A DNA stretch of 32,000 nucleotides from the NCBI RefSeq assembly GCF_000223395.1, contig NC_015931.1, positions 450,001 to 482,000 of the forward strand. The letters are read 5' to 3'. A model generated the notes under the pieces. It did no database searches. It was not told the DNA's origin and saw only the letters and a program-made list of their open reading frames with translations. This document shows, in pieces, positions 5,519 through 25,977 of this stretch. Made by a program: the position numbers and the translations under genes. The DNA is from Pyrolobus fumarii 1A (GTDB taxonomy: Archaea > Thermoproteota > Thermoprotei_A > Sulfolobales > Pyrodictiaceae). Within the stretch, counting starts at the first letter, position 1. Every line of letters starts with the position of its first letter.

Positions 5519-6694
5519 TCAGGGTTTGTGCCCATGCAGCTTGGCCACGGCTTCCTGGTATACCCTGTGCGGGTCTAGATCGAGGAGAGTCTCTACACCC
5601 TCCCGGTATCCCAGCTCTATCACCGTACGGTAGACTGGGTATTGGGGCTTGTAGCGTATGCCGTCGCGCCCCCGCGGGTACACCGGATAAACTATGTTGT
5701 AGGTTGTGAGTATCTGGCCTAGTGCGTGTAAGTGTGGCTCGCGGAGAGGCGCGATGTCGTTGTTTATGAGTTCGTAGGCTAGTCTTATCACTTCTCGCGG
5801 CTCAAGCTCACGGCGGAAGATCTCCGCGCTTAGCACGTTCCTAGCCCGGCTGAGCCCAGTCTCAACCTCCGCTATCCACATTGGCACACGTTCCTCCACC
5901 ACTGTGTTTCTGTCGAGCATGCACAACTCGGGCAGGTAGCCAGGCGTCCCGCCCACAAGACCCAGCACCTCGTCCACATCTACACCGCAGCTTTTCAAGC
6001 TCACATACTCCTTGTAGAGAGCCCTGAAATGATCGACATCCAGATGCTCGACTAGCATCCATGCCGTGGAGTACCCGTGGAGCTTTGACAAGACGAGGTC
6101 TGTAGCCGTGAAACCCTCGCTTACAGTTAACACTATAGTGATGTTCGAGTAGTGCGGATCCTTTGCTAGTAGGCCTGCGAGAGCCTCCAGGTCGTCAAGA
6201 GCATCGAGGTACTTGCTCGCCGGGTCGCTTTTATGCATGTAGCGGGGCAGCAGGTGGAACTCGTCTATAAAGAGGATTATCCGCGTGGAGGCATACTCGC
6301 GGATAACGTCTATGAGTACATCGATGGCATGGTATGTCAGCTGGAGTAGCCCAGTAGACCTATCGTCGAGGTCTTTGAGAACTTCCAGAAGCCGCTCGGC
6401 TAGATTCTTTTTATCGACTAGTAGACCTCTCGTCTCAAGCGCCCTGACAAGATGCTGACCCCGGAGCCGACGCGCATCCACGTACACGGCTGCTATGCGG
6501 CCACGCTCTTGTAGCCCCCGGAGCCAGTACCGTACGAGCTCGCTCTTCCCGACGCCACGCGGCCCATAGACTATAACCGTCCTATGAGAGAAGACGAGTT
6601 TATCCAGCCTCTCGAGCTCCACGAGCCTATCGTAGAAGGCTGTGCCCAGCCCCGTACGGTAACCCCGATCAACATACACCGCTACCATCTCCAC
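5519..6694 (-). CDS. Archaeal AAA+ ATPase (Arch_ATPase/PF01637-like, with a C-terminal DUF234-type winged helix)
   Basis: The N-terminus reads FYDRLVELERLDKLV...VIVYGPRGVGKSELV (Walker A). ILFIDEFHLL is Walker B. The length of 391 aa is typical of the family. Confidence 0.8.
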   Translation of the reverse strand: MEMVAVYVDRGYRTGLGTAFYDRLVELERLDKLVFSHRTVIVYGPRGVGKSELVRYWLRGLQERGRIAAVYVDARRLRGQHLVRALETRGLLVDKKNLAERLLEVLKDLDDRSTGLLQLTYHAIDVLIDVIREYASTRIILFIDEFHLLPRYMHKSDPASKYLDALDDLEALAGLLAKDPHYSNITIVLTVSEGFTATDLVLSKLHGYSTAWMLVEHLDVDHFRALYKEYVSLKSCGVDVDEVLGLVGGTPGYLPELCMLDRNTVVEERVPMWIAEVETGLSRARNVLSAEIFRRELEPREVIRLAYELINNDIAPLREPHLHALGQILTTYNIVYPVYPRGRDGIRYKPQYPVYRTVIELGYREGVETLLDLDPHRVYQEAVAKLHGHKP

Positions 6695-11091: not shown

Positions 11092-14000
11092 CTTTCAATT
11101 CATTCTTGGTTGTTTCGCAATACTACGTGGTGAAGAGGTGCCGCCAGAGTCAGGCATTGACCTTTCAATTCATTCTTGGTTGTTTCGAGAGCATGACGTG
11201 TGTGTCACAACCGGCAAGAAGGGCGTGTGTATCTTTCAATTCATTCTTGGTTGTTTCCAGCGCCTGCTCCTAGGCCGTGACCGTGACGAGGAGACGGTCT
11301 ATGTCACCCTTTCAATTCATTCTTGGTTGTTTCGGGTGTGGTAGCCGAACGATAGCCTGGCTAGTGATAGTGTGTACTTTCAATTCATTCTTGGTTGTTT
11401 CCCAAACTTGCCACCAATGCCTCAGCCAACACCAAAACCGTAAGCTTTCAATTCATTCTTGGTTGTTTCTCCCCGCGATTGTCGATACGCCGGGTGTCGT
11501 TACCGTTGGCTTTCAATTCATTCTTGGTTGTTTCCTGTGTCCGCGCCCGGGGACACCCCTCCCTCAGCATGTGCTCCTTTCAATTCATTCTTGGTTGTTT
11601 CCCCTTGTAGCGAGCCACGGCCAACACACCAACCCGATGCTAGTTCTTTCAATTCATTCTTGGTTGTTTCACCGCTCTACGCCACCCCCTACCTGAACGT
11701 CACGACCGGCTTTCAATTCATTCTTGGTTGTTTCACAAAACGCGCGATATATAGACGCGCGCGGCTATAATATAATATAACGCGACTTTCAATTCATTCT
11801 TGGTTGTTTCCTCGATAGCTCTACGAATCGCCTCTGAGCGATTTATTCCACGCTTTCAATTCATTCTTGGTTGTTTCACGGATACGTCTCGCACAGACGT
11901 ACCTCTATCGTCACTTTATCTTTTCTTTCAATTCATTCTTGGTTGTTTCGAAACCCTCTTGACGGGAATGTGGCAGGGCAAGTGGAACTTTCAATTCATT
12001 CTTGGTTGTTTCCTACCAACGTGCTGGTGGCCGCAGCCAGCCTAGCCCCGGACATCCTTTCAATTCATTCTTGGTTGTTTCGGCGCTGCTGGAAGCCGTG
12101 GTGGAGTCTATACCGGTGCTGGACCTTTCAATTCATTCTTGGTTGTTTCTACCCGACTGCCAGGGGAGTACACGTTTACGCCACTAGCGAGTCACCATGG
12201 GTCTTTCAATTCATTCTTGGTTGTTTCGCTGCTGCAGCCTTTATTGCACAGAACGGCTCGTAGCTTACCTTTCAATTCATTCTTGGTTGTTTCCTCGAGA
12301 GCCTCTATGAGAGCGTTAGAGGCACTAGCAAGCTCACAGTGCTTTCAATTCATTCTTGGTTGTTTCTCCAATTGCCAGGATCCTCGAGAAGGAGTTAGGT
12401 GAAGTAGCCACTTTCAATTCATTCTTGGTTGTTTCCTAGGAGTTGAAGGGTTCGAAGGCTGAGGCTGGGATGATACTTTCAATTCATTCTTGGTTGTTTC
12501 CTCGTAGGCGAGGTGTACCGCTGGCGTGCCCATCGCCATTGCCTCCTTTCAATTCATTCTTGGTTGTTTCGTAGGGGGTTGCGGGTACGCTGCATGGTTG
12601 ACGAGCCGCTGGGCTTTCAATTCATTCTTGGTTGTTTCCCGAGCCCGAAGGAGCTTGGCGCGCGCGTCTTCAAGGGCGACTTTCAATTCATTCTTGGTTG
12701 TTTCCGATGGCAACGAGGTTGACGTGCACTTCGACCACCTGGCGCACTTTCAATTCATTCTTGGTTGTTTCGCGTTGGAGAGGCTGCTGGAGGAGCGGAG
12801 GGTTGACGCGAGCTTTCAATTCATTCTTGGTTGTTTCGCGTAGACCTTCAGCAGCGCCCCCCTGCTGGCCGCCTTGCCCAGCTTTCAATTCATTCTTGGT
12901 TGTTTCCAGTAGCATGCCGCTATACTACGAAGTGTTCGTGAAGTGCCTTTCAATTCATTCTTGGTTGTTTCACGCAGTGTAACCCGGGAGAGTACGCGTT
13001 CAACGTGTCAGGTCAGCTTTCAATTCATTCTTGGTTGTTTCATCATGGACTTCTTCAACCGCGTGAGCGTCGTTGAGCATACTTTCAATTCATTCTTGGT
13101 TGTTTCCGGGGTACGTGGTCACAACCGCATCACCGTGTGTGCAGCGAACCTTTCAATTCATTCTTGGTTGTTTCAAACCAGCGCCGTGCCTCGGAAACGG
13201 TGATTATGTAGAAATAGCCTTTCAATTCATTCTTGGTTGTTTCCTACGAATAGCATAGGCGGGCACCGTATCTACCTACCCGAGTATGGCTTTCAATTCA
13301 TTCTTGGTTGTTTCGCAACCCGGCCTAGCTGTAGCCATGCTTGTATGCTTCGCCATATACCTTTCAATTCATTCTTGGTTGTTTCAATAGCTCCACTACT
13401 TGGTCAACGGCGTACCCCATCCACTTCTTTCAATTCATTCTTGGTTGTTTCAGGCGAAGCCCGACGAGGTTGCCGCCGAGATATCTGGTATCCCTTTCAA
13501 TTCATTCTTGGTTGTTTCTAGGATAGAGACGGTGAAGGGCAACGGGGCGTTCTTCGAGACTAGTGCTTTCAATTCATTCTTGGTTGTTTCTGATTCTCCC
13601 ACCCGGCTGAGCGGTGATGACGGCAGCCTCCACTCTTTCAATTCATTCTTGGTTGTTTCAGGGCAGTAGGATTAGCGCCAGGAGTGGCGCGAGGGTTATC
13701 AAAAACTTTCAATTCATTCTTGGTTGTTTCTACCGACGAGCAGACGGCTACGCCGCGCACCCAGCGAGAGGCTATCGACTTTCAATTCATTCTTGGTTGT
13801 TTCTCCGCGCGCGAGATCCATCTCTCCCGCCCCCGCGCTTCGGGTAGCTTTCAATTCATTCTTGGTTGTTTCTCGCTCGAGGAGGTGAGGAGGCTGGCCC
13901 AGGAGGGTAGCTTTCAATTCATTCTTGGTTGTTTCGTCGCGTAGTATACGCGCCGCGGTGAGCACCCCGAGCTGCTCCTTTCAATTCATTCTTGGTTGTT

Positions 14001-16549
14001 TCCTGGCCGTGGCCCCTCTCGCAATCGGCCTCAGCTTCCTCCCTTTCAATTCATTCTTGGTTGTTTCGGAGAAGATGGCGGTCTCAGGGCCGCCGCCCGC
14101 GAGGCGGTCCCACTTTCAATTCATTCTTGGTTGTTTCATAGGGGGTCGTCTGGCAACACGACCTTCGAGATAACGTTCAACGTGACGAGCTTTCAATTCA
14201 TTCTTGGTTGTTTCCATCGAGGCTCTGGACTACCTCGCCGAGATGATAGACTATAGGGCTTTCAATTCATTCTTGGTTGTTTCGCCAGGCCCGAGGCGGT
14301 GAGGTTTGACAACGTGGAGAGGAACGGACTTTCAATTCATTCTTGGTTGTTTCACCTTGGCGTCCGGCAGTGGCGGGGCCGACGGCCCCACCAGGCCCCG
14401 CCTTTCAATTCATTCTTGGTTGTTTCGGATTGTTCTAGCATCTGCTCCGAACCCAAATCATAATTCGCTTTCAATTCATTCTTGGTTGTTTCCGTGGCAT
14501 AGTGATAGTGGCAACGCATACTGACATATTCCACGTCGGTCCTTTCAATTCATTCTTGGTTGTTTCTACGGCAGGAGCGCCGAGCAGGTTGAGCTCGCGA
14601 GCCTACTTTCAATTCATTCTTGGTTGTTTCTCTAGCTCTACGCTCACGTTGAGGGGCACGGCTCTCACCCCCTTTCAATTCATTCTTGGTTGTTTCCATG
14701 GGCGCGGTTGAGACCTTCGAGGACAGGATAGCCTCGACTTTCAATTCATTCTTGGTTGTTTCTCTATGGTGGATGGCGAGGACGGCGACATCTGGTACGA
14801 GCTTTCAATTCATTCTTGGTTGTTTCCCGTGTCCTGGTCACCAACCAGCTCCTAGCCCCGGGCGTGCGCGTGCAGCTCTTCGTACTTTCAATTCATTCTT
14901 GGTTGTTTCACGAGGTGAGAGACTTCACAGAGATAGCCCGCATAGTAGCAAAAACGCCTTTCAATTCATTCTTGGTTGTTTCTGGAACCGCCGCCACCGT
15001 TGGCCTGACGCTATTCGTGATTGCTTTCAATTCATTCTTGGTTGTTTCTCCGGATCCCCGCACCGCGTATAGAGGGTATGCGCGGGGGTATAACTTTCAA
15101 TTCATTCTTGGTTGTTTCACATGGAGGAGCCAAGGCTCATAACCGCGATACGCGAGAATGCTTTCAATTCATTCTTGGTTGTTTCCAGAAGTCTTACGAC
15201 GGATACTAGTGGTGCAAATAATGCTTTCAATTCATTCTTGGTTGTTTCACTACACGACCCTGCAAATTCCCATCGTGTCATAGTGTCATACTTTCAATTC
15301 ATTCTTGGTTGTTTCGCGGTCTGGAGCCCGGTGCACGGATCTACATCTACGATGTCTTTCAATTCATTCTTGGTTGTTTCCTGGCCGCCGCACTTGGCGT
15401 TGAGGGTGTGGAGGCAAGCGCTTTCAATTCATTCTTGGTTGTTTCACGAGGCAGTGTGTTAGTGACGATAGGCCGGTGTGTAGCGAGACTTTCAATTCAT
15501 TCTTGGTTGTTTCTTAACAGCGTACTTCAGCGCTTCGCGGACGCCAACGCGTACCTTTCAATTCATTCTTGGTTGTTTCCGCGTTGGTCTTGTAGCTCTC
15601 TGCGCCGGCGTCCACGCGGGAGTCGCTTTCAATTCATTCTTGGTTGTTTCCCCGCATGGGTCTACCCCTCTCCCGAGATGCGCAAGGTAGCGACCCTTTC
15701 AATTCATTCTTGGTTGTTTCGTAGCTCTCGATCCACCCGCGGAACACAGGGTCGGCATGCTTTCAATTCATTCTTGGTTGTTTCCAGCCTCACTAGAATC
15801 TCGTATATCTCGCGGGCTTGTTGTATCTTTCAATTCATTCTTGGTTGTTTCGCTCGGTGTTCAAGTCGGTGGTCTACGACCGTTGCGGGTGCGTCCAGAC
15901 TTTCAATTCATTCTTGGTTGTTTCAGTGATATGCTAGTCGGTGATTTATGGTGATAATAAACGTGCTACTTTCAATTCATTCTTGGTTGTTTCGTACTGA
16001 AAAGTGTTGGTCTACTTGATAAGCTAAGAATGTATCTTTCAATTCATTCTTGGTTGTTTCAATACAAAACAATCAAGATATTGACGGGCCTGCCTTTAGT
16101 AAATGTAACTTTCAATTCATTCTTGGTTGTTTCTTGTAATGCGGGGTGAGGGCATGAAACTGAGAGAATTAGTACTTTCAATTCATTCTTGGTTGTTTCG
16201 ACGTCGTAATGCAGATCATGACGCGGTGGTTGCTAACGCCACTCTTTCAATTCATTCTTGGTTGTTTCTGCGGATAGAGGAGGGGAGGATAACGTTTCCG
16301 ATCGGGGTGCTTTCAATTCATTCTTGGTTGTTTCAAAACGATCCGTGTCGAGTCCGGCCTCGCGATAATCAAGGTACTTTCAATTCATTCTTGGTTGTTT
16401 CAGCGTCACGTCCCAGCTTCTCCTGCCGTAGGCGGTGTACGCTGGTTGGTCTGGACTTTCAATTCATTCTTGGTTGTTTCTCGCTAGGAAGGGCCGCGAG
16501 TGGGTGGCTGCCGTGAGTTATGGGCTTTCAATTCATTCTTGGTTGTTTC
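11092..16549 (-). CRISPR. CRISPR array 1: 80 repeats and 79 spacers, transcribed from the minus strand with the leader at the right end
   Basis: The 25-bp repeat CTTTCAATTCATTCTTGGTTGTTTC (plus strand) was located by hand at 80 positions from 11092 to 16525. Spacers are 38-58 bp. Orientation is set by the ATTGAAAG 3' end of the reverse-complement repeat and by the conserved leader at 16550-16858. The repeats look identical on inspection. Confidence 0.98.
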
Positions 16550-16584
16550 TGCATTCTTGCCGTGTGGTTATAGGGTCTCTCTTC

Positions 16585-16591
16585 TATTTAT
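16585..16591 (-). promoter_or_regulatory. TATA-box-like ATAAATA of the array-1 leader promoter
   Basis: On the minus strand, agaaaagaATAAATAgaag lies about 36-42 nt upstream of the first repeat, preceded by an A-rich BRE-like stretch. The same element sits at the same distance in the array-2 leader. Confidence 0.55.
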
Positions 16592-16661
16592 TCTTTTCTC
16601 TGTTGTCTTTGTTTCTGTGATTTGAGTGTAGTCGTGCCGGGCACAGATGGCCGTGGGGTAT

Positions 16662-16678
16662 GGTCCGCGGGTAGTACC
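16662..16678 (-). promoter_or_regulatory. Leader box GGTACTACC-N3-GGACC (proximal copy, array 1)
   Basis: The plus strand reads ggtccgcgggtagtacc. The box lies 112 bp from the first repeat, exactly as at 23698-23714. Confidence 0.5.
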
Positions 16679-16761
16679 GAGTTTATAAGCCGGGCAAGGG
16701 TTAAATACCGGATTACAGCGGTCGGGAGTACCTCACATCCACCCATGGAACCGTGAGCGAC

Positions 16762-16778
16762 GGTCCACCGGTAGTACC
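16762..16778 (-). promoter_or_regulatory. Leader box GGTACTACC-N3-GGACC (distal copy, array 1)
   Basis: The plus strand reads ggtccaccggtagtacc, exactly 100 bp from the proximal copy. Confidence 0.5.
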
Positions 16779-16854
16779 AGGGGTTAAAAGGATTACGCTG
16801 AGTGGTAGAAAAAGTTTTTCGTAGAGATGTGGTTTATGCTTTTCGGCTCTTGGC

Positions 16855-16938
16855 TTGTGTGGGTTGTGTTGTTTTGGTGGTTTGTTGGGTGTGTGTTGTG
16901 GTGTTGTTGGTTGTTTTGGTAGGTTTGGTGGTGGTGTT
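16855..16938. repeat. Low-complexity tract of about 85 bp made almost entirely of G and T (C/A on the other strand)
   Basis: The sequence ttgtgtgggttgtgttgttttggtggtttgttgggtgtgtgttgtggtgttgttggttgttttggtaggtttggtggtggtgttgt contains a single A and no C after 16854. It lies between the leader homology and the probable cas4 start. Confidence 0.8.
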
Positions 16939-17463
16939 GTGAAGGAGTTTGTGTGGTGTCCGGTTGCTGCGTGGCTCTCTGTTAACCTGGGTGTGTCTCC
17001 TCCGGTGACGCCTCGTATGCTTGAGGGTGTTGAGGGTCACTCGAGGGTGTTGGAGGTTTTGCATGGCTTGGGTTTCGGGGATGCCAGGTTGCTCCCTCCT
17101 CTCGCTTCTCGCAGGTGGCCTATCGTCGTGGCTCCCGACGCGTATAGCCCGTCGCGGGGGGCTCTCCTCGAGGTGAAGTGGGTTGCTAGGATAGACTCTA
17201 GGCTGTATCGTGTGCAGGCGCTGCTGTACGGGGTTGTTGCGCGGGAGAATGGGCTGCGTGTGGAGCGCGTGGGGCTTGTCGATGCTCATCGCGGCCGGGT
17301 GTTGTGGTTTGAGCTGGACTGGGGGTCGTTCAGTATCGTCGAGAGGCTGGTGGAGAGAGTGTTGGAGACCGTGTCTAGGCCGCTGCCTCCGCCGGTCACC
17401 CAGCCGCCCGAGAAGTGCCTGGCGTGCAGGTGGAGGAGGTGGTGCCCCGAGAGGAGCGTCTAG
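16939..17463 (+). CDS. cas4: Cas4 (RecB-like PD-(D/E)xK nuclease with a four-Cys cluster)
   Basis: There is an N-terminal Cys in FVWCPVAAWL (CPRKxWL-like), a nuclease core APDAY...ALLEVKW (D...ExK), the motif YRVQALLYGVV (QxxxY) and the C-terminal CLACRWRRWC. The ORF track opens at 16855, but that extension translates the GT tract, so the GTG at 16939 is the more likely start. Confidence 0.75.
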   Translation: MKEFVWCPVAAWLSVNLGVSPPVTPRMLEGVEGHSRVLEVLHGLGFGDARLLPPLASRRWPIVVAPDAYSPSRGALLEVKWVARIDSRLYRVQALLYGVVARENGLRVERVGLVDAHRGRVLWFELDWGSFSIVERLVERVLETVSRPLPPPVTQPPEKCLACRWRRWCPERSV

Positions 17464-17479: not shown

Positions 17480-18670
17480 CTAGGCGCCTGGGATGCCCCT
17501 GCCGATCGCCTCGCGTAGCCACGTGGGGCCCGCCGCGCCGGTTAGGGACGCGAGCGCCGCCAACGCGACGCGGTTAGCTGGCGCGATGCTGTCTAGCGCG
17601 CCGCACGGCCCGCCGCCCCCGCACTCCCCTACCCCCTCCTCCACCTCTACCCTCGTATCCACCTCCCCACACTCCCTATTCCACTCGTAAACCCCTAGGT
17701 ACTCGCCACACCCCAGCTGGAGCACGTTCAGCCTGGTCAGGTGTTTTAGTAGCGAGTGGTGCTCGGGTGGCAGCGAGTAAGCCTCCTCGAGGGGCATGGG
17801 GCCCTCCACGAGGCGCATGAGCACGTCCCGCGCCTCGCCCCGCCGTGCAGCGGCCAGCGCCTCTAGCACGGCGCGCTTGTATGCTCTCAGCCTCCTGCGG
17901 TAAGCCGCCCTAGGCGAGCTGGACGCGAGCACCTCCTGGATCAACGCGGGGTGCCCGCCAACCACGTCTAGAAGCTCGTCATGCTCCCTCGCGTTGAGGG
18001 CCTCGGCTAGGCTCCTGGCGTCGACGCGCGTCATCTCGCCGAGGTAGAAGGTGTCGAGGTAGTCCACGCCGGGGGCCTCCCGGTACAGCGTCTCGTATAG
18101 CCCGTAGTCGCTGGTGACCAGGAGGGCGCGGAAGGAGTAAGGGTGCTGCTCTTGTAGCGTGGCGAGCAGCTTCACAAAGCTCCACACGTGGAGCCCTAGG
18201 CCCGTGATGAGGTTCTGCGCCTCGTCTATAACGAGGACGAGCTTCACACCCTCCCTCTCACACCTCTCGACGGCGGCGGACAGGGCGTCACCGATGACCT
18301 CCAGTGGCGTCCTAGGGGGCGCCACCCTACCCAGATCGACACCCATCTTCTCGCGCAGGATCGAGGCCACAGCCTCCACAAGAGCCCTCCTAGCGAGGCC
18401 GCCGACACCCTCCAGGCTAGACACGAGCCTCCCAGCCAACAGCCTAACGTCGCGCACCGGCTCGAGAAGCTGGAGGTATACCACCAGGTACGCCCGGGGG
18501 TCTAGACGCTCGCGGAGACTAGACGCCAGGGTAGACTTCCCGATGCCACTGGGCCCCACGAGCACCGTGACGAGCCGCGAGCCCCTCTCTTCGACAAGCT
18601 CCTCCAGCCTCCGCAGCTCAACCTCCCTACCAACAATCCTCAACCAGCCGCAACCCCCGGCGCGGTACAC
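17480..18670 (-). CDS. Archaeal AAA+ ATPase (Arch_ATPase/PF01637-like), the second copy in the window
   Basis: The N-terminus reads IVGREVELRRLEELVEE..LVTVLVGPSGIGKSTL (Walker A). LVLVIDEAQNL is Walker B. The length is 396 aa. Confidence 0.8.
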   Translation of the reverse strand: MYRAGGCGWLRIVGREVELRRLEELVEERGSRLVTVLVGPSGIGKSTLASSLRERLDPRAYLVVYLQLLEPVRDVRLLAGRLVSSLEGVGGLARRALVEAVASILREKMGVDLGRVAPPRTPLEVIGDALSAAVERCEREGVKLVLVIDEAQNLITGLGLHVWSFVKLLATLQEQHPYSFRALLVTSDYGLYETLYREAPGVDYLDTFYLGEMTRVDARSLAEALNAREHDELLDVVGGHPALIQEVLASSSPRAAYRRRLRAYKRAVLEALAAARRGEARDVLMRLVEGPMPLEEAYSLPPEHHSLLKHLTRLNVLQLGCGEYLGVYEWNRECGEVDTRVEVEEGVGECGGGGPCGALDSIAPANRVALAALASLTGAAGPTWLREAIGRGIPGA

Positions 18671-20122: not shown

Positions 20123-20508
20123 CGCGGGTCGCCGATTTGCAAGTCTTTCGTCTCCTCGGCGGCGAGTGCCGGGTGTGTAGAGTCGGGGGAGATCGACTGT
20201 AAGGTTGACGCGCTGGCCGTGATCCGTGACCCGAGTGGATCGGTGACTATCGTGTCGGGGGCTATGGTCGGCGGGGAGTGTGTGGGGCCTTACCGTGCCC
20301 TGGCTAGCGACGTCCTAGACCCGGGTGTAGTCGGGCTCCTCGCCCGCGTGGCCCGCATCCTCGCTGATGCCGGGTGCCGGTGGTGACCCGTTCGAGCCTA
20401 GAGCGCGACTATACACTAGTCCCGAGCGGTCTCGCCGGCCGCGCCGTCCGGGCGCTCCGCGAGAACGGCTTCACGGTCCTGGGGGAGGGTAGGGCTAGGC
20501 TAGGGTGA
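20123..20508 (+). pseudogene. Decayed ACT-domain (ACT_7-like) gene with no start codon and one frameshift
   Basis: My translation gives ...DALAVIRDPSGSVTIVSGAMVGGECVGPYRALASDVLDPGVVGLLARVARILADAGCRW* (stop at 20384-20386). It continues in another frame as PVVTRSSLERDYTLVPSGLAGRAVRALRENGFTVLGEG* (stop at 20506-20508). Joined, this matches the ACT_7 pattern L.eaG(I/V)pv..iSt.erDYiLV....l..A..aL...Gf.v. The frame change sits at the ggg run near 20372-20374. Confidence 0.4.
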
Positions 20509-20785
20509 CTCCGGGTTTGGGCTTCGCGCCGGGTATGTTGGCGCCCTCGCCTATCACTATCCTCGTCTCCCACGTATGGTCGTGGACGAGTATGATGTCG
20601 ACCCGGTCCGTCACCGGGTCTATTATCCTCTTCAGCGCCGCCGCCACCTGCCTCGCCTTCTCCCTCCCGCCCCTCGCCGCATAGAGGCTCCTCTGGATCC
20701 TCTGGAAGCCCATGGAGAGTAGGAGCTTCGCAGCCCTATCCCTCTTGTAGTCGTCGCTTATGTCATAGGCGACTATCACTATCAC
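20495..20785 (-). CDS. cas2: Cas2
   Basis: MIVIVAYDISDDYKRDRAAKLL..GFQRIQRSLY is a classic Cas2 ferredoxin-fold N-terminus. The protein is 96 aa and lies directly downstream of cas1. Confidence 0.9.
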   Translation of the reverse strand: MIVIVAYDISDDYKRDRAAKLLLSMGFQRIQRSLYAARGGREKARQVAAALKRIIDPVTDRVDIILVHDHTWETRIVIGEGANIPGAKPKPGVTLA

Positions 20786-20787
20786 GG

Positions 20788-21807
20788 CTACCTCACCGCC
20801 TCGCGGAACGGCGCGTACATGGAGCCGCTGCGCACCGCCTGCGCGAGGAGCCTAGCGTGCCTCGCCATGTGCCTCTCTAGGGTGTCGCTCTTGCCCGTCG
20901 CCCCGTCCCTCACAACCCTCTCCCTCACCCACCTCGCGTACTCCGCTACCAGCCTCGAGCGCGTCTCCGCATCCATGAGGCCGGTTTGCGGGTCTCTCAC
21001 CGGCCTCCATCCGCCCGCGAGCAGCTTGTAGGCCAGGCGGTCGACTGCCGAGACCCTGAAGAGTTCCGCGAAGTCGTATACTAGGGTTGGGCGCCCGCTC
21101 CTATCCGCGTGGATGAAGCCCACGTAGGGGTCCAGCCCGTACATGACGAGGTAGCGGTGTACCCACGCGTAGAGGAGCGCGTAGAGGTAGTTGAGGATCG
21201 TGTTCATCGGGTCTGGGGAGTCGTGGTTCCTCCCCTGGAACCCCACGTCGCCCGGCAGGAGGGCGGCGAGCGCACCCCAGTACCTCCTCGCGGCGTGCGC
21301 CTCCAGCACACGCAGCCTATCGACGCTATCCTCGCCCAGAGCCCTCCTGGCGTACTCCTCGATCCTCTCGGCCTCGTCTCGAAGCCAGGCCTCGCCCCTC
21401 TCGAGCGCCAGGCTCCGGAGGAACCCAGCCTGGTTGAGCATCTTCCCGTAGACTATGCTCTTGGCCACCGCGAGCCTCGAGGAGGGGTCCGTAGCGGCCC
21501 TATACTGGGCTATCCTCGTCTCGCTCGTCCTGCTCACCCACGGGGGTGTGAGGGTAACCACCGGGTTGCCACGGGCGTCTAGGAACAGGATGTCTATCCC
21601 GAGCCTCGCCAGCCTCCTCACCGCCGAGCTCGTAATACTCACCTGCGACGTGACTATCACGATGCGGTCTACCTCCGCGATAGGCACGACGCTCCGGCTC
21701 CTACCCCCGCCATCCACAGACTCGACCACTATCGCCCCGCGGTGCACGCGCAGCCTGGCGCCCCTAGCGGAGACCACCAGCACCCGGGGAGCCCCGTCTC
21801 CTCCCAA
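20788..21807 (-). CDS. cas1: Cas1 integrase
   Basis: Cas1 motifs are present: LEAHAARRYW, MNTILNYLYALLY, GFIHADRSGRPTLVYDFAELFR. The length is 339 aa. Confidence 0.95.
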   Translation of the reverse strand: MGGDGAPRVLVVSARGARLRVHRGAIVVESVDGGGRSRSVVPIAEVDRIVIVTSQVSITSSAVRRLARLGIDILFLDARGNPVVTLTPPWVSRTSETRIAQYRAATDPSSRLAVAKSIVYGKMLNQAGFLRSLALERGEAWLRDEAERIEEYARRALGEDSVDRLRVLEAHAARRYWGALAALLPGDVGFQGRNHDSPDPMNTILNYLYALLYAWVHRYLVMYGLDPYVGFIHADRSGRPTLVYDFAELFRVSAVDRLAYKLLAGGWRPVRDPQTGLMDAETRSRLVAEYARWVRERVVRDGATGKSDTLERHMARHARLLAQAVRSGSMYAPFREAVR

Positions 21808-21822
21808 CCAGCGCCACCCCCG

Positions 21823-22692
21823 CTACGGGGCGCACACGAGGCGCATCGGGCACTGGTCGGGGCACCTAGGAGGCCTCCCAGGGTCCACCTGCGACACGAC
21901 GATCTCCGCAGCCTCGTCGCGCGCAGTGAGGAACTCGGCTCGCTCCTCGTTACCGATGTAGACGGGCTCCAGGGTCAACCTAGAGCCATCGCCGTTCACG
22001 AGTATGACGAGGCCATAGTCGAAGGGTATCTCGAGGCTAGCCTCCAAGGCCATCGCGTAGCCCGCGAGCGCCACCGGGTAGTCGCGGCTCCACCTCCCAT
22101 ACTTCACCTCGACGACAAGCCCGGGGGCCAGTGCATCCACCCGAAGCCTCCTGGAGAGCCCCAGCAGACCCCCGTCGACCTCATACTCTGTTATCCAGGG
22201 CGGCGCCCCAGTCTCCTCCATCCACTGGGCCCACGCGAACACCATCTTCTTGTACACGCGCGCCGCGAAGACGGCGATGCCGTCACCGTCTCCCTCTATA
22301 CCGGCAGACTCGAGTATCACGGAGGCCCTCTCACGCGCGCCGCCCACGAGCTCGGCCACGGCGTCCTCGGTGCTCTTCCCCTCGCCCAGGACGAGCCTAG
22401 AGAGGTCACGCGCAGCCAGCCTGAAAGCCTCGTGGACGATCCGCCCCTTGAGCATCGCCTCGGTGGGTTGCCCTCGGAGCCCGCGGACCCTCCGGAGCCA
22501 GAGGTCACGCCGGGTCGGGCAGTAGCGGTACGCGACCTCAGACACCCCGAGCCCCACGAAGTACCTCGGCTTTACCGGGCTACTGTGCCAGCTCCACCCC
22601 CGGTACCGCTCCTCGACGGGATCAGCAGCCCGCAGTAGGTGCAGCTTGCGGAGCGCTCGGGCGAGCGACGAGGCCGCGAGCAGAGCAGGCAC
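21823..22692 (-). CDS. csa1: Csa1/Cas4'-type Cas4-family nuclease
   Basis: Motifs present: YRYCPTRRDLWL (N-terminal Cys), VDALAPGLVVEVKYG (D...ExK), YPVALAGYAMAL, and the C-terminal RCPDQCPMRLVC. The size of 289 aa and the position upstream of cas1-cas2, divergent from csa3, match the type I-A csa1-cas1-cas2 arrangement. Confidence 0.7.
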   Translation of the reverse strand: MPALLAASSLARALRKLHLLRAADPVEERYRGWSWHSSPVKPRYFVGLGVSEVAYRYCPTRRDLWLRRVRGLRGQPTEAMLKGRIVHEAFRLAARDLSRLVLGEGKSTEDAVAELVGGARERASVILESAGIEGDGDGIAVFAARVYKKMVFAWAQWMEETGAPPWITEYEVDGGLLGLSRRLRVDALAPGLVVEVKYGRWSRDYPVALAGYAMALEASLEIPFDYGLVILVNGDGSRLTLEPVYIGNEERAEFLTARDEAAEIVVSQVDPGRPPRCPDQCPMRLVCAP

Positions 22693-22867
22693 CCAAAAGG
22701 TATTACCATATTAGGGGTGGTAACACCGCGCCACGTACACCCCCATCAAAGCGAATCATAAACCACGGTCCATCCACGGTAATACCGCTACTAGCCTGGA
22801 CCATGGGCTCTGAACGCCATCGGCCAGCCCCGGTAATAGCCGCCGGTACTACCAGACGCCCACAACG
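22693..22867. promoter_or_regulatory. Divergent csa1 / csa3 promoter region carrying GGTAnTAnC-type boxes
   Basis: Boxes found: ggtattacc 22699-22707, ggtaacacc 22719-22727, ggtaatacc(gctactagcctggacc) 22778-22802, ggtaatagc 22832-22840, ggtactacc 22845-22853. They are related to the leader boxes. Confidence 0.45.
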
Positions 22868-23542
22868 GTGGGACACATCGAGGCGCTACTCTACGTCATC
22901 CAGGCTAGCCCGGAGGGAGCCATACAACACGTGATCCGCCACCGCCACGCGGATACCGTGATAGTCGCGGTGCCAGCGCCGCCAACAAGAGCAGCACTAC
23001 TAGCCTACCACGAGATACGCCTGGTGGCCACGAGGCTAGGCTACCAGGACGCACACCTCATACAACTGCCGGTGGCCAACCCCCCGCTAGCCACACACGA
23101 AGCTTACAAGGCGGTGAGAGACTACAACGCGATACACGCCCTGATAAACGCCCCGCCAGCCATGGCGATACCCGTCTACACCGCACTACTCCTACACGCC
23201 CTGACGAACAACGCGCGCATCACCATAACGCTGGCCACGCTAGACCCCCAACAACCCTACACGACACTAACACTAGATCCAGTCACTACCATAATCACCG
23301 GGAGAGGCCTAGCCTCAACAAGGGCGCGGATAGCCCACCTGCTCCTACAGGAGGGCAGAACAACACCAACAAGAGCAGCACAACACCTAAACATATCAAA
23401 GACAACCGCAGAGAAACACCTCCGCTGGCTCAGGAACAAACAACTAGCAAACCAGGCACACGGCAACATCTACACACCAACACCATGGCTAAAACTACAC
23501 CACGAAATACACTGGAAACAAGCCAAGAGTCGAAAAGCATAA
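22868..23542 (+). CDS. csa3: Csa3-like transcriptional regulator (CARF-like N-terminal domain plus C-terminal winged HTH)
   Basis: The protein is 224 aa. The C-terminal IAHLLLQEGRTTPTRAAQHLNISKTTAEKHLRWLRNKQLA is a wHTH. The N-terminal beta-alpha-beta pattern (VIVAVPAP..., ALINAPPAMAIPVYTALLL) fits a Csa3 CARF domain with a degenerate loop motif. The gene is divergent from csa1-cas1-cas2, as in Sulfolobus. It has a GTG start. Confidence 0.7.
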   Translation: MGHIEALLYVIQASPEGAIQHVIRHRHADTVIVAVPAPPTRAALLAYHEIRLVATRLGYQDAHLIQLPVANPPLATHEAYKAVRDYNAIHALINAPPAMAIPVYTALLLHALTNNARITITLATLDPQQPYTTLTLDPVTTIITGRGLASTRARIAHLLLQEGRTTPTRAAQHLNISKTTAEKHLRWLRNKQLANQAHGNIYTPTPWLKLHHEIHWKQAKSRKA

Positions 23543-23597
23543 GCCAAGCCCTCACGAAATCCTTTTTCCACCCTTCAGCGTAACGCTTCTAACCCCT

Positions 23598-23614
23598 GGT
23601 ACTACCGGTGGACC
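23598..23614 (+). promoter_or_regulatory. Leader box GGTACTACC-N3-GGACC (distal copy, array 2)
   Basis: The box reads ggtactaccggtggacc, embedded in taacccctggtactaccggtggaccgt. Confidence 0.5.
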
Positions 23615-23697
23615 GTTGCCTATGGGACTATGACTGGTTGAGAGTAGCACAAGACCGCTGTAAACTCATACTTAAGCTTTTCTCTGCTTATAAACCC

Positions 23698-23714
23698 GGT
23701 ACTACCGCTGGACC
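23698..23714 (+). promoter_or_regulatory. Leader box GGTACTACC-N3-GGACC (proximal copy, array 2)
   Basis: The box reads ggtactaccgctggacc, embedded in taaacccggtactaccgctggaccgt. It is 100 bp from the distal copy and 112 bp from repeat 1. Confidence 0.5.
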
Positions 23715-23784
23715 GTCCCGCAAGGGCACCGTTGAAGCCCATTACACCTCCCCAACCACAGAAACAAAGACAACAGAGAAAAAG

Positions 23785-23791
23785 ATAAATA
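23785..23791 (+). promoter_or_regulatory. TATA-box-like ATAAATA of the array-2 leader promoter
   Basis: In gagaaaaagATAAATAggagag, the element lies 36-42 nt upstream of the first repeat at 23827. Confidence 0.55.
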
Positions 23792-23826
23792 GGAGAGAGA
23801 CCTTACAACCACACGGCAAGCGTGCA

Positions 23827-25977
23827 GAAACAACCAAGAATGAATTGAAAGGCGGAGGTAGAACCAGGCGCGTAGGAGGCGCCTGTAAAAACTCTGAAAC
23901 AACCAAGAATGAATTGAAAGCATTGACGTATCTAGGTTCCCACCCACAGACGTGCCCCTCTGATGAAACAACCAAGAATGAATTGAAAGGCAGCATGGGC
24001 ACCAACTCTGGGACTCGCTAAGGTGGAAGTTCTTGAAACAACCAAGAATGAATTGAAAGGTGGCGGTTCACCGCCGCATAAAGAAGGACAAAGCGAAGGC
24101 GAAACAACCAAGAATGAATTGAAAGGAGCGTCACGACCTCGCCGGCGTTCCTGGTCTCCGGGAGATGCAGAAACAACCAAGAATGAATTGAAAGTCAACC
24201 AGCTCATCAATCACCTTGAACTTCTCCTCAAGCCTCCTACGAAACAACCAAGAATGAATTGAAAGGACACTAATGACATTAGCGGGTTTGATTGACAGGT
24301 TGACACGGGAAACAACCAAGAATGAATTGAAAGAGACGGTGACCCGTGTGAGTGTAGAACTGATTACAGGCTCGTCTGAAACAACCAAGAATGAATTGAA
24401 AGCGGGATGATACAGGGCAGGAGGAGCAGCGGCCTGGGCTGCAGGGGAAACAACCAAGAATGAATTGAAAGCCCCCACTGGGCCCGGTTCGGGCGGTTAC
24501 CGCCTCATAGACGGAGAAACAACCAAGAATGAATTGAAAGTTTCGTTGTTCTTTTCCACGCTCATCCAACCCACCGAGTGACTCATCATGAAACAACCAA
24601 GAATGAATTGAAAGATTCCCGTTCCCAGGCCGGGGCTCGGGGCTAGGCTCTGGCTCGGGCTCCTGAAACAACCAAGAATGAATTGAAAGACATTCTCGAA
24701 CGCGTCTATGGGCACAATGAGATTGCGGAGTTCGGAAACAACCAAGAATGAATTGAAAGCGATCGCGAGGATAATCCCGTTACGTAAAGCAACGATGTGA
24801 AACAACCAAGAATGAATTGAAAGGCCTACGCATGAGCTCGGGGTGGGCCACGGCCAACACCACGGAAACAACCAAGAATGAATTGAAAGGATCAGCTTCA
24901 ACGTGATGATCCTGGCCTTGTCCACCTGGTCGCTGAAACAACCAAGAATGAATTGAAAGCTCTCGGGTATTTCTCGGCGCCGTAGTGCCCCTCGGGCTTG
25001 AAGCGCGTGAAACAACCAAGAATGAATTGAAAGAACCACCTTGCCGGTTACCACACCCGCGGTTATGATCTTGGAAACAACCAAGAATGAATTGAAAGTT
25101 ATCGGTGCCACGCCGCGCCACCCACCTGACACTACCACCGAAACAACCAAGAATGAATTGAAAGGAACTGGTGGCACGCATACTGGTACGCTCAGCAGTA
25201 CGCTCGAGAAACAACCAAGAATGAATTGAAAGCACAAGGGCTGGTACACTAGCGTCGAGCACTCTGGAGGCGGAGAAACAACCAAGAATGAATTGAAAGC
25301 TCGATAGTATTTTTCATAGCTTTCAGATTACTCTTGAGCTCGTGAAACAACCAAGAATGAATTGAAAGTATCGTCACTTTATCTTTTAGGTTTGGCGTTA
25401 CAGCCCAGTAGGAAACAACCAAGAATGAATTGAAAGGTGATACTCGCTGTGGGGATTAGCGTTGGGACGGCGCTCGCGGCGAAGAAACAACCAAGAATGA
25501 ATTGAAAGGCGTTATACCAGCGCCGATTGACGCGCTCGGGCGCTTCTAGGAAACAACCAAGAATGAATTGAAAGCATAACTGAGAACCCAGCGCTCAAGG
25601 CGTTGTACGAGCGTAACGAAACAACCAAGAATGAATTGAAAGTTGAGGGGCTTGCACTCTATATCCAGGTGAACCCTAGTCGATGAAACAACCAAGAATG
25701 AATTGAAAGTAATTCTCCTGGTAACGCCGCTCGCAACCCCCAGTGTAGCTCCTGAAACAACCAAGAATGAATTGAAAGTTTTAGCTAGGAGCGGCCACGC
25801 TGCAACGTATTGCGATATGAGAAACAACCAAGAATGAATTGAAAGGATGACGATTGATATATGGCGGCGTGCGCGGTATGGAGAGGAAACAACCAAGAAT
25901 GAATTGAAAGCAGTCGCCGTCGTACGGCTGGTGGTTGATGTAGCCGCGTGGGGAAACAACCAAGAATGAATTGAAAG
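23827..25977 (+). CRISPR. CRISPR array 2: 32 repeats and 31 spacers, transcribed from the plus strand
   Basis: The repeat GAAACAACCAAGAATGAATTGAAAG was located by hand at 32 positions (23827 to 25953). Spacers are 39-50 bp. The leader is immediately upstream. Confidence 0.98.

Follow-up and report, generated by a model that had tools for sequence, protein, structure and literature searches.

A repeated box in the leaders of a type I-A CRISPR locus

The window analysed here, a 32,000-nucleotide (nt) stretch of the Pyrolobus fumarii 1A genome to which coordinates refer unless another locus is named, is a type I-A CRISPR locus, and our subject is a short sequence element that recurs in the leaders of its two arrays and in the promoter region of its adaptation genes. 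The adaptation operon csa1-cas1-cas2 (20495-22692, minus strand), which we presume to be the regulated target, comprises csa1 (21823-22692; Pfam Csa1, E 3e-69), cas1 (20788-21807; Pfam Cas1, E 1.5e-71) and cas2 (20495-20785; Pfam Cas2, E 9e-17). Across an intergenic region of 175 bp (22693-22867) it is adjoined by a divergently oriented csa3-like gene, Pyrfu_0502 (22868-23542, plus strand), whose 224-amino-acid (aa) product combines a divergent CARF-like domain with a winged helix-turn-helix (HTH) and is the proposed binder of the element. Leader 2 (23543-23826, plus strand) and array 2 (23827-25977, plus strand; 32 repeats, GAAACAACCAAGAATGAATTGAAAG) follow, with the first repeat at 23827. 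Array 1 (11092-16549, minus strand) holds 80 identical repeats and has its first repeat at 16549, while leader 1 and the intergenic DNA as far as cas4 occupy 16550-16935 on the same strand.

The 17-bp box GGTACTACCNNNGGACC, or GGTACTACC-N3-GGACC, is present in exactly four exact copies in the window, two per leader. In leader 1 (minus strand) the proximal copy, GGTACTACC-CGC-GGACC, lies at 16662-16678, corresponding to -129 to -113 from the first repeat, and the distal copy at 16762-16778 (-229 to -213), approximately 158 bp ahead of the divergently oriented cas4. In leader 2 (plus strand) the distal copy lies at 23598-23614 (-229 to -213) and the proximal copy, in which GCT separates GGTACTACC from the half-site GGACC, at 23698-23714 (-129 to -113), both as exact matches. 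A fifth site, with two mismatches, is found at 22845-22861, and the resulting total of five sites with up to two mismatches compares with 0.25 expected by chance and was reached in none of 100 shuffles of the window. An earlier sequence-only reading of this DNA had reported two boxes per leader, copies 100 bp apart and a distance of 112 bp between proximal copy and first repeat, all of which the box and repeat coordinates confirm for both leaders. When anchored at the first repeat and compared without gaps, the two leaders prove to be paralogues, 74% identical over -284 to -1 and 91% identical inside the boxes, where only the three N positions differ. The presence of two boxes in both leaders is thus not the outcome of four independent events.

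The box is a composite of a palindrome and a second motif

The 17-bp box is a composite of two motifs, which we call M1 (GGTAnTACC, a 9-bp palindrome with the core GGTANTACC) and M2 (GGACC, often as GGACC-N9-GGTCC). Exact M1 occurs seven times in the window against 0.39 expected, a count reached in none of 100 shuffles, and all seven copies fall within 848 bp of leader or csa1/csa3 intergenic DNA. M2, counted as GGACC or GGTCC, is fivefold enriched in the leader and intergenic regions, and neither motif resembles the CRISPR repeat. The symmetrised M1 consensus from 28 sites is C-rich - GGTA(A/T>C/G)TACC - G-rich, which can also be written cc-GGTAwTACC-gg. One-mismatch variants of M1 are not enriched across the window (13 versus 9.4 expected), so the analysis was confined to exact and position-conserved copies. 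Scaled from 0.39 per 32 kb, the chance expectation for the whole P. fumarii genome is approximately 20 copies of GGTANTACC and essentially none of GGTAYTACNNNNGGAMC. Literature searches on the motif words turned up no CRISPR-related paper, and searches combining Pyrolobus, CRISPR and leader returned nothing relevant.

The sequence-only reading had described the 17-bp box as being echoed in the csa1/csa3 promoter. What leaders and promoter have in common is the 9-bp palindrome M1 and not the full box, and with this amendment all five half-sites that it listed in the 175-bp region were found there, as M1 sites starting at 22699, 22719, 22778, 22832 and 22845, three of which are exact. The outermost, GGTATTACC (22699-22707), stands 6 bp from the csa1 start codon, with the further copies 26-150 bp upstream. 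It is followed by GGTAACACC (22719-22727), which has one mismatch and a counterpart, GATAACACC, in the related loci L001 and L002 (introduced below), by a central copy, GGTAATACC (22778-22786), set between GGTCC (22767-22771) and GGACC (22798-22802) in a unit spanning 22767-22802, by the M1-like GGTAATAGC (22832-22840), and by an exact GGTACTACC (22845-22853) that stands 14 bp from the csa3 start codon. Two other readings of M1 were rejected: a Shine-Dalgarno-like role, since M1 also lies at -129 in the leaders, where there is no open reading frame (ORF), and an RNA hairpin, since a 4-bp stem with a 1-nt loop is unable to fold.

The palindrome is concentrated in the regulatory DNA of related loci

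We collected related loci through Csa3 homologues (L001 and L002), through Csa1 homologues (L024-L030 and L033) and, in the case of L011 from a metagenome-assembled genome (MAG) of Pyrolobus sp., through a scan for a DNA pattern, and took approximately 88 kb of flanking DNA from the P. fumarii locus and its relatives as the background for motif density. Across 11 loci, 4.19 kb of intergenic and leader DNA holds 16 exact copies of M1, compared with 3 in the 87.9 kb outside these regions, a 112-fold difference in density (Fisher p 3e-19); with the P. fumarii window excluded, there remain 9 copies in 3.3 kb and 3 in 56.7 kb, respectively. In an unbiased search for enriched 7-mers, fragments of M1 took ranks 1-6, followed by words from M2 and TTATAA; the 7-mer GTAATAC was present in 10 of 10 lineages, with 19 copies against 0.3 expected (p 7e-28). 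As in P. fumarii, M1 is found in both the intergenic region and the leader of L001, L002 and L028. The pattern scan itself, which used TTATAARCNNGGTAYTACNNNNGGA, also gave spurious matches: 12 in metagenome contigs, most of them of low GC content and none followed by a CRISPR repeat, and 5 of the same kind in genome contigs were all taken as chance, leaving L011 as the only real one.

M1 copies beside the start codons recur in the related loci. In the ten loci that encode the same Csa3-like subfamily, recognisable by a wing with the motif PTPW (ATPW in L028), intergenic M1 is present at eight or nine of nine positions, each intergenic region holds two to five copies, and one copy usually adjoins each of the two start codons. 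The csa1-adjacent copy has an equivalent in L001, L002, L024, L026 and L027, and M1 adjoins the start of the csa3-like gene in these five loci and in L029 and L033. These copies are retained in orthologous loci whose Csa1 proteins are 62-82% identical and whose Csa3-like proteins are as little as 27% identical. By contrast, the more distant type I-A loci L031 (Aeropyrum sp.) and L032, which encode a canonical Csa3 together with the same Cas1, Csa1 and Cas4 set, contain no exact M1 in 10.8 and 16.9 kb, respectively (27.6 kb). Within P. fumarii, there is likewise no M1 in the promoter of the Cascade operon, upstream of csa5, or in approximately 8 kb past the window.

Several other features of these intergenic regions were recorded. 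Between csa1 and csa3, L029 (2073-2183) has a pair of 15-bp direct repeats, CCACCAATCCAGGCG, and L030 (710-937), where a more canonical Csa3 is encoded, has two copies of the palindrome TACCTGTGTACAGGTA; both are candidate operators. In L002 (approximately 2163-2330) and L024 (approximately 341-392), the N-terminal csa1 codons are conserved (PALFAASSLARALRK) with no in-frame ATG, GTG or TTG at the position where P. fumarii and L001 start with GTG, and either csa1 has a non-canonical start in these loci or the stretch is conserved for another reason.

Leader modules keep a fixed distance from the first repeat

The proximal box is part of a larger arrangement. Both P. fumarii leaders and those of L002 and L011 share TTATAA at -139, GGTAnTAC (M1) at -129, GGAMC (M2) at -117, ATAAATA at -42 and GTGCA at -5 to -1. 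The TATA-like word TTATAAA stands directly 5' of the proximal box in leader 2 (23688-23694, plus strand), and its counterpart in leader 1 is at 16682-16688 (minus strand). The best-conserved 17-nt leader window begins at -139/-138, with 14 of 17 positions invariant. The 112-bp distance to the first repeat is the same in all four leaders, which represent three lineages (P. fumarii, L002 and L011), and there is no insertion or deletion (indel) between -112 and -1 even though sequence identity between lineages over this interval is no more than 46-55%. The pattern that retrieved L011 left the spacing unspecified, and the L011 leader nonetheless shows 112 bp. In L028 the leader module lies at -185/-174 instead of -129, which makes the 112-bp rule specific to the Pyrolobus clade.

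While the proximal box and its distance to the repeat thus hold in L002 and L011, the distal box does not extend beyond P. fumarii. At the distal position all four leaders keep GGAMC at -217/-216, as does L001, and M1 occurs there only in P. fumarii, where approximately 42 bp of the distal module resemble the proximal one. The distal copy, and with it the precise repetition of the box, is confined to P. fumarii. A spacing of about 98-100 bp between two modules is more general than the presence of two boxes and is found in five lineages, among them L025, which has GGACC at -238 and -138 and no clear M1. In its palindromic form M2 occurs as GGACC-N9-GGTCC in the L011 leader (-117) and in both the leader and the intergenic region of L025, and as GGAAC-N9-GTTCC in L002.

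Two further elements lie closer to the arrays. ATAAATA at -42 (23785-23791, plus strand, and 16585-16591, minus strand), preceded by a purine-rich stretch, is probably the B recognition element (BRE) and TATA box for the CRISPR RNA precursor (pre-crRNA). GTGCA at -5 to -1 (23822-23826, plus strand, and 16550-16554, minus strand) directly precedes the first repeat in six of six leaders examined, those of the distant L025 and L028 among them, and probably serves as a signal for the leader-repeat junction. An inverted repeat around the proximal module of leader 2 (23665-23686 with 23774-23795) was dropped because it is not conserved in leader 1. At its array-distal end, leader 1 (16834-16863, minus strand) repeats the last ~30 nt of csa3 including the stop codon (23514-23545), ACAAGCCAAGAGyCGAAAAGCATAArCCA, in a place where there is no csa3, so leader 1 probably arose by duplication of a unit made up of the csa3 3' end, leader and repeat.

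The neighbouring gene encodes a predicted Csa3-fold protein

The 224-aa ORF beside the adaptation operon had been called Csa3-like in the sequence-only reading, and profile and structure comparisons agree. Pyrfu_0502 matches the Csa3 profile TIGR01884 over its full length (E 7e-10; 38.6 bits against a cut-off of 60.2). An AlphaFold2 model (mean predicted local distance difference test score, pLDDT, 73) consists of a Rossmann-like CARF domain followed by a C-terminal winged HTH, and the four best Foldseek matches in the PDB are all Csa3 structures (6wxq, 2wte and 6w11; E 1e-7 to 3e-6 over ~190 aligned columns), so that by its predicted structure Pyrfu_0502 is a Csa3-fold protein. In an exhaustive HMMER search of 1.84 billion representatives, the matches fell into only 14 clusters at 50% identity, which indicates that this branch is rare; a search of genome and metagenome contig collections with a Csa3 profile gave no match, P. 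fumarii itself not being matched either.

Among eight relatives with 27-61% identity to Pyrfu_0502, the best-conserved stretch is the recognition helix, (S/T)T.(E/R)K.L..L, together with the wing Y.PTPW. The canonical Csa3 proteins of L031 and L032, in which M1 is lacking, have another helix (KTV.N) and the wings PTGW and VTSW. As a different source of the binder we considered a gene of 182-189 aa that follows cas2 in L025 and L027, and rejected it as it has no counterpart in the window.

A candidate operator shared by adaptation genes and leaders

The M1/M2 boxes are a real, conserved cis-regulatory element, as borne out by the motif itself, its enrichment, its positional conservation and its co-occurrence with one Csa3 subfamily. 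We consider it probable, if well short of certain, that they form the operator of the adjacent Csa3-family regulator, which would couple csa1-cas1-cas2, csa3 itself and both leaders; which protein binds, whether it represses or activates, and whether it takes part in integration are points that we infer from the sequence. The proposal of the sequence-only reading that these are Csa3 sites linking adaptation genes and arrays is in this way partly supported, the cis-elements being shared, conserved and strongly enriched, and Pyrfu_0502 being their predicted binder.

In the mechanism that we propose, the winged-helix domain of Pyrfu_0502 would read the M1 palindrome, and occupancy of M1 at the csa1/csa3 promoter would control csa1-cas1-cas2 as well as csa3, the latter by autoregulation. 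Repression would be the simpler reading at this promoter, with activation of the Sulfolobus type as the alternative, because copies of M1 that lie 6-14 bp from the start codons are placed more as in repression or autoregulation than as an activator site upstream of the Sulfolobus csa1 promoter. In the leaders, M1 fused to M2 behind TTATAA would constitute a module at -139 to -99, a set distance from the first repeat. If S. islandicus Csa3a is a guide, a regulator bound there may promote or adjust transcription from the leader, and it could also hand Cas1, or Cas1-Cas2, to the leader-repeat junction. Both arrays would thereby be placed on the same switch as the adaptation genes.

The closest known counterpart is the Csa3a system of Sulfolobus, for which operators have been described in the csa1 and cas1 promoters and in the CRISPR leader (Liu et al. 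2015, 2017, 2022; PMC4333418, PMC5587795, PMC9456107). In footprinting, S. islandicus Csa3a protects an imperfect palindrome that precedes the csa1 promoter (PMC4333418). It also occupies a leader motif between -130 and -103 and activates CRISPR transcription (PMC5587795). It further interacts with Cas1, and when the leader motif is mutated, adaptation falls only at the array next to it (PMC9456107). The P. fumarii locus resembles this system in that csa3 is divergent from csa1-cas1-cas2 and situated between two arrays, one motif serves both the adaptation-gene promoter and the leaders, each leader has two motif copies, the TATA boxes at the target promoters are weak or atypical and the interference operon has no site; the leader site, at -129 to -113, falls within the interval occupied by its Sulfolobus equivalent. 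The two systems differ in that the core here is a 9-bp perfect palindrome whereas that of Sulfolobus is a 24-bp imperfect one, and in that the outermost promoter copies abut start codons here, while the Sulfolobus site lies upstream of BRE/TATA. Further differences are that Pyrfu_0502 comes from a rare and divergent branch of Csa3 that has no canonical CARF motifs and that cas4 is detached. To our knowledge, control of both adaptation genes and leaders by Csa3a has been shown only in Sulfolobus, where its authors saw the leader site in just a subset of leaders, and the same logic, with an acquisition-gene promoter and leaders that share a motif beside csa3, is now seen in Pyrodictiaceae, another crenarchaeal family. 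The motif is sharply defined, unrelated in sequence to that of Sulfolobus and at a strictly conserved distance from the first repeat, and as a candidate operator it is open to direct testing with thermostable proteins. In our view, the features most worth attention are this strictly conserved spacing and the CARF-degenerate regulator.

Comparison with other CRISPR-associated DNA-binding proteins helps to delimit the proposed role. Csa3b, a regulator with CARF and winged HTH domains, binds palindromic sites in the type I-A Cascade promoter and represses it (PMC5389559, PMC7480081). Csa3b thus controls interference genes, whereas no M1 lies upstream of csa5-cas7-cas5-cas8-cas3 here, which fits a Csa3a-like range of adaptation genes and leaders and not a Csa3b-like range of interference genes. 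Cbp1 and Cbp2 are crenarchaeal DNA-binding proteins dedicated to CRISPR loci, but their targets are the repeats and not the leader (PMC3597662); Pyrolobus is mentioned in the Cbp2 paper. In type I-E and I-F leaders of E. coli and Pectobacterium, a site for integration host factor (IHF) is accompanied by an upstream integrase-anchoring motif (summarised in PMC9456107). Like that IHF site, the module described here stands at a fixed distance from the leader-repeat junction, which suggests a geometric role in integration; unlike it, it is much further from the junction (125 bp from the M1 centre) and occurs in a gene promoter as well. We know of no IHF in archaea, and the 112-bp spacing, if functional, would bear on how type I-A systems locate the leader-repeat junction without it.

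Several observations weigh against Pyrfu_0502 as the reader of M1. By inspection, GGTAnTACC (with or without GGACC) is unrelated to the Sulfolobus Csa3a consensus TTCNTAACTAAANANGGNNNGAAA, although the authors of the Sulfolobus work expected distinct motifs for divergent Csa3a proteins. The Csa3-like proteins differ down to 27% identity and M1 hardly varies, as might equally be expected if the binder were a better conserved protein encoded elsewhere. The half-sites of M1 are only 5 bp apart, which is unusual for a winged-helix dimer spread by a CARF dimer; the alternatives are that one domain binds each M1 or that M2 is the true dimer site. The co-occurrence of M1 with the Csa3 subfamily is confounded with phylogeny. 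Finally, the TIGR01884 score is below the curated cut-off and the same is true of PF22662 (22.6 against 27), and the CARF motifs that canonical relatives carry, TLGFH after strand 1 and DLTGG after strand 4, are replaced in the aligned Pyrfu_0502 clade by VIQAS and LINAPPA. We take TLGFH and DLTGG to line the CARF ligand pocket, and a clade without them may not sense cyclic oligoadenylate (cOA).

Alternative explanations

That the palindrome is conserved while Csa3 changes so strongly also speaks for the idea that M1, M2 or both are bound by some other protein, such as a host chromatin or transcription factor, Cas1 or Csa1, which would organise the leader for integration as a stand-in for IHF, Csa3 being a mere neighbour. 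The distance between proximal module and repeat is exactly 112 bp and free of indels although identity is only ~50%, two modules are 98-100 bp apart in five lineages including L025, which has no clear M1, and spacer integration in S. solfataricus requires unidentified host factors and a long leader (PMC5815122). We nevertheless regard this as rather unlikely, in that M1 stands out equally in the promoter, at the start codons of csa1 and csa3, which are not places of integration, and is absent from type I-A loci that have other Csa3 types yet the same Cas1, Csa1 and Cas4; the position of the L028 module at -174 also makes any ruler clade-specific. A related and still less likely possibility retains Pyrfu_0502 and changes its job: the TATA-like/M1/M2 modules would be an archaeal integration ruler, and Pyrfu_0502 a constitutive leader-recognition subunit instead of a cOA-sensing transcription factor. 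The first module, at -139 to -99, would place the centre of M1 125 bp (~12 helical turns) from the junction, with the second ~100 bp further upstream, and this Csa3 paralogue without CARF pocket motifs would wrap or loop the leader and deliver Cas1-Cas2 to the first repeat. If this were true, the role that IHF plays in types I-E and I-F would be filled and the long-sought "host factor" of type I-A integration identified.

A different kind of account needs no dedicated regulator, in that the TATA-like element and M1, as a conserved initiator or promoter-proximal element, could form a core promoter architecture that csa1 and csa3 share with an upstream promoter in the leader and that the basal machinery recognises. 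M1 directly follows a TATA-like word in the leaders (TTATAA-N4-M1) and also at csa1, as CTTATAC-M1 in L026, CTCTAAT-M1 in L027 and CTAATAT-M1 in P. fumarii, and a transcription start predicted ~26 bp from TTATAA would fall just past the 17-bp box (archaeal promoter knowledge cited in PMC4333418). M1 is, however, without a TATA-like word at the distal leader and central intergenic copies of P. fumarii and at csa1 of L001, L002 and L024; it is a strict palindrome present in two to five copies per intergenic region, it was not found at other promoters sampled, that of the Cascade operon included, and a better BRE/TATA for the pre-crRNA is available at -42. We consider this account quite improbable. 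That the boxes are functionless, a combination of leader-duplication relics and chance promoter likeness, would fit the paralogy of the leaders (74% identity) and the resemblance of the distal box to a copy of the proximal module, but the same word recurs at the same position in the independent lineages L002 and L011, M1 supplies the top 7-mer and is enriched 112-fold across loci, and no shuffle out of 100 reached the observed count. The first of these points effectively refutes the relic explanation, to which we attach next to no credence.

Other features of the locus

The Rfam search gave no match across the whole window. The cas4 gene (approximately 16936-17463, plus strand; TIGR00372, E 1.4e-14; start inferred from the translation) is separated from csa1-cas1-cas2 and lies divergently beside leader 1; in L025-L029 and L033, cas4 comes immediately after the csa3-like gene and points the same way. 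In the mechanically predicted ORF (16855-17463), the first ~27 codons form a G/T-rich stretch encoding Cys, Gly and Val, and the real start is therefore probably the GTG at 16936/16939. Two paralogous genes for PF01637 "archaeal ATPase" (STAND-like) proteins, at 5519-6694 and 17480-18670 (the latter on the minus strand), lie on either side of array 1, and the second of them sits between cas4 and cas2. From 26442 to the end of the window, the minus strand carries cas3'', cas3', a 428-aa ORF without a family match, cas5 and cas7. To the right of the window (6182-7827 of L003), two gene pairs of the HEPN and nucleotidyltransferase (MNT-type) kind are found directly upstream of the P. fumarii csa5-cas7-cas5-cas8-cas3'-cas3'' operon.

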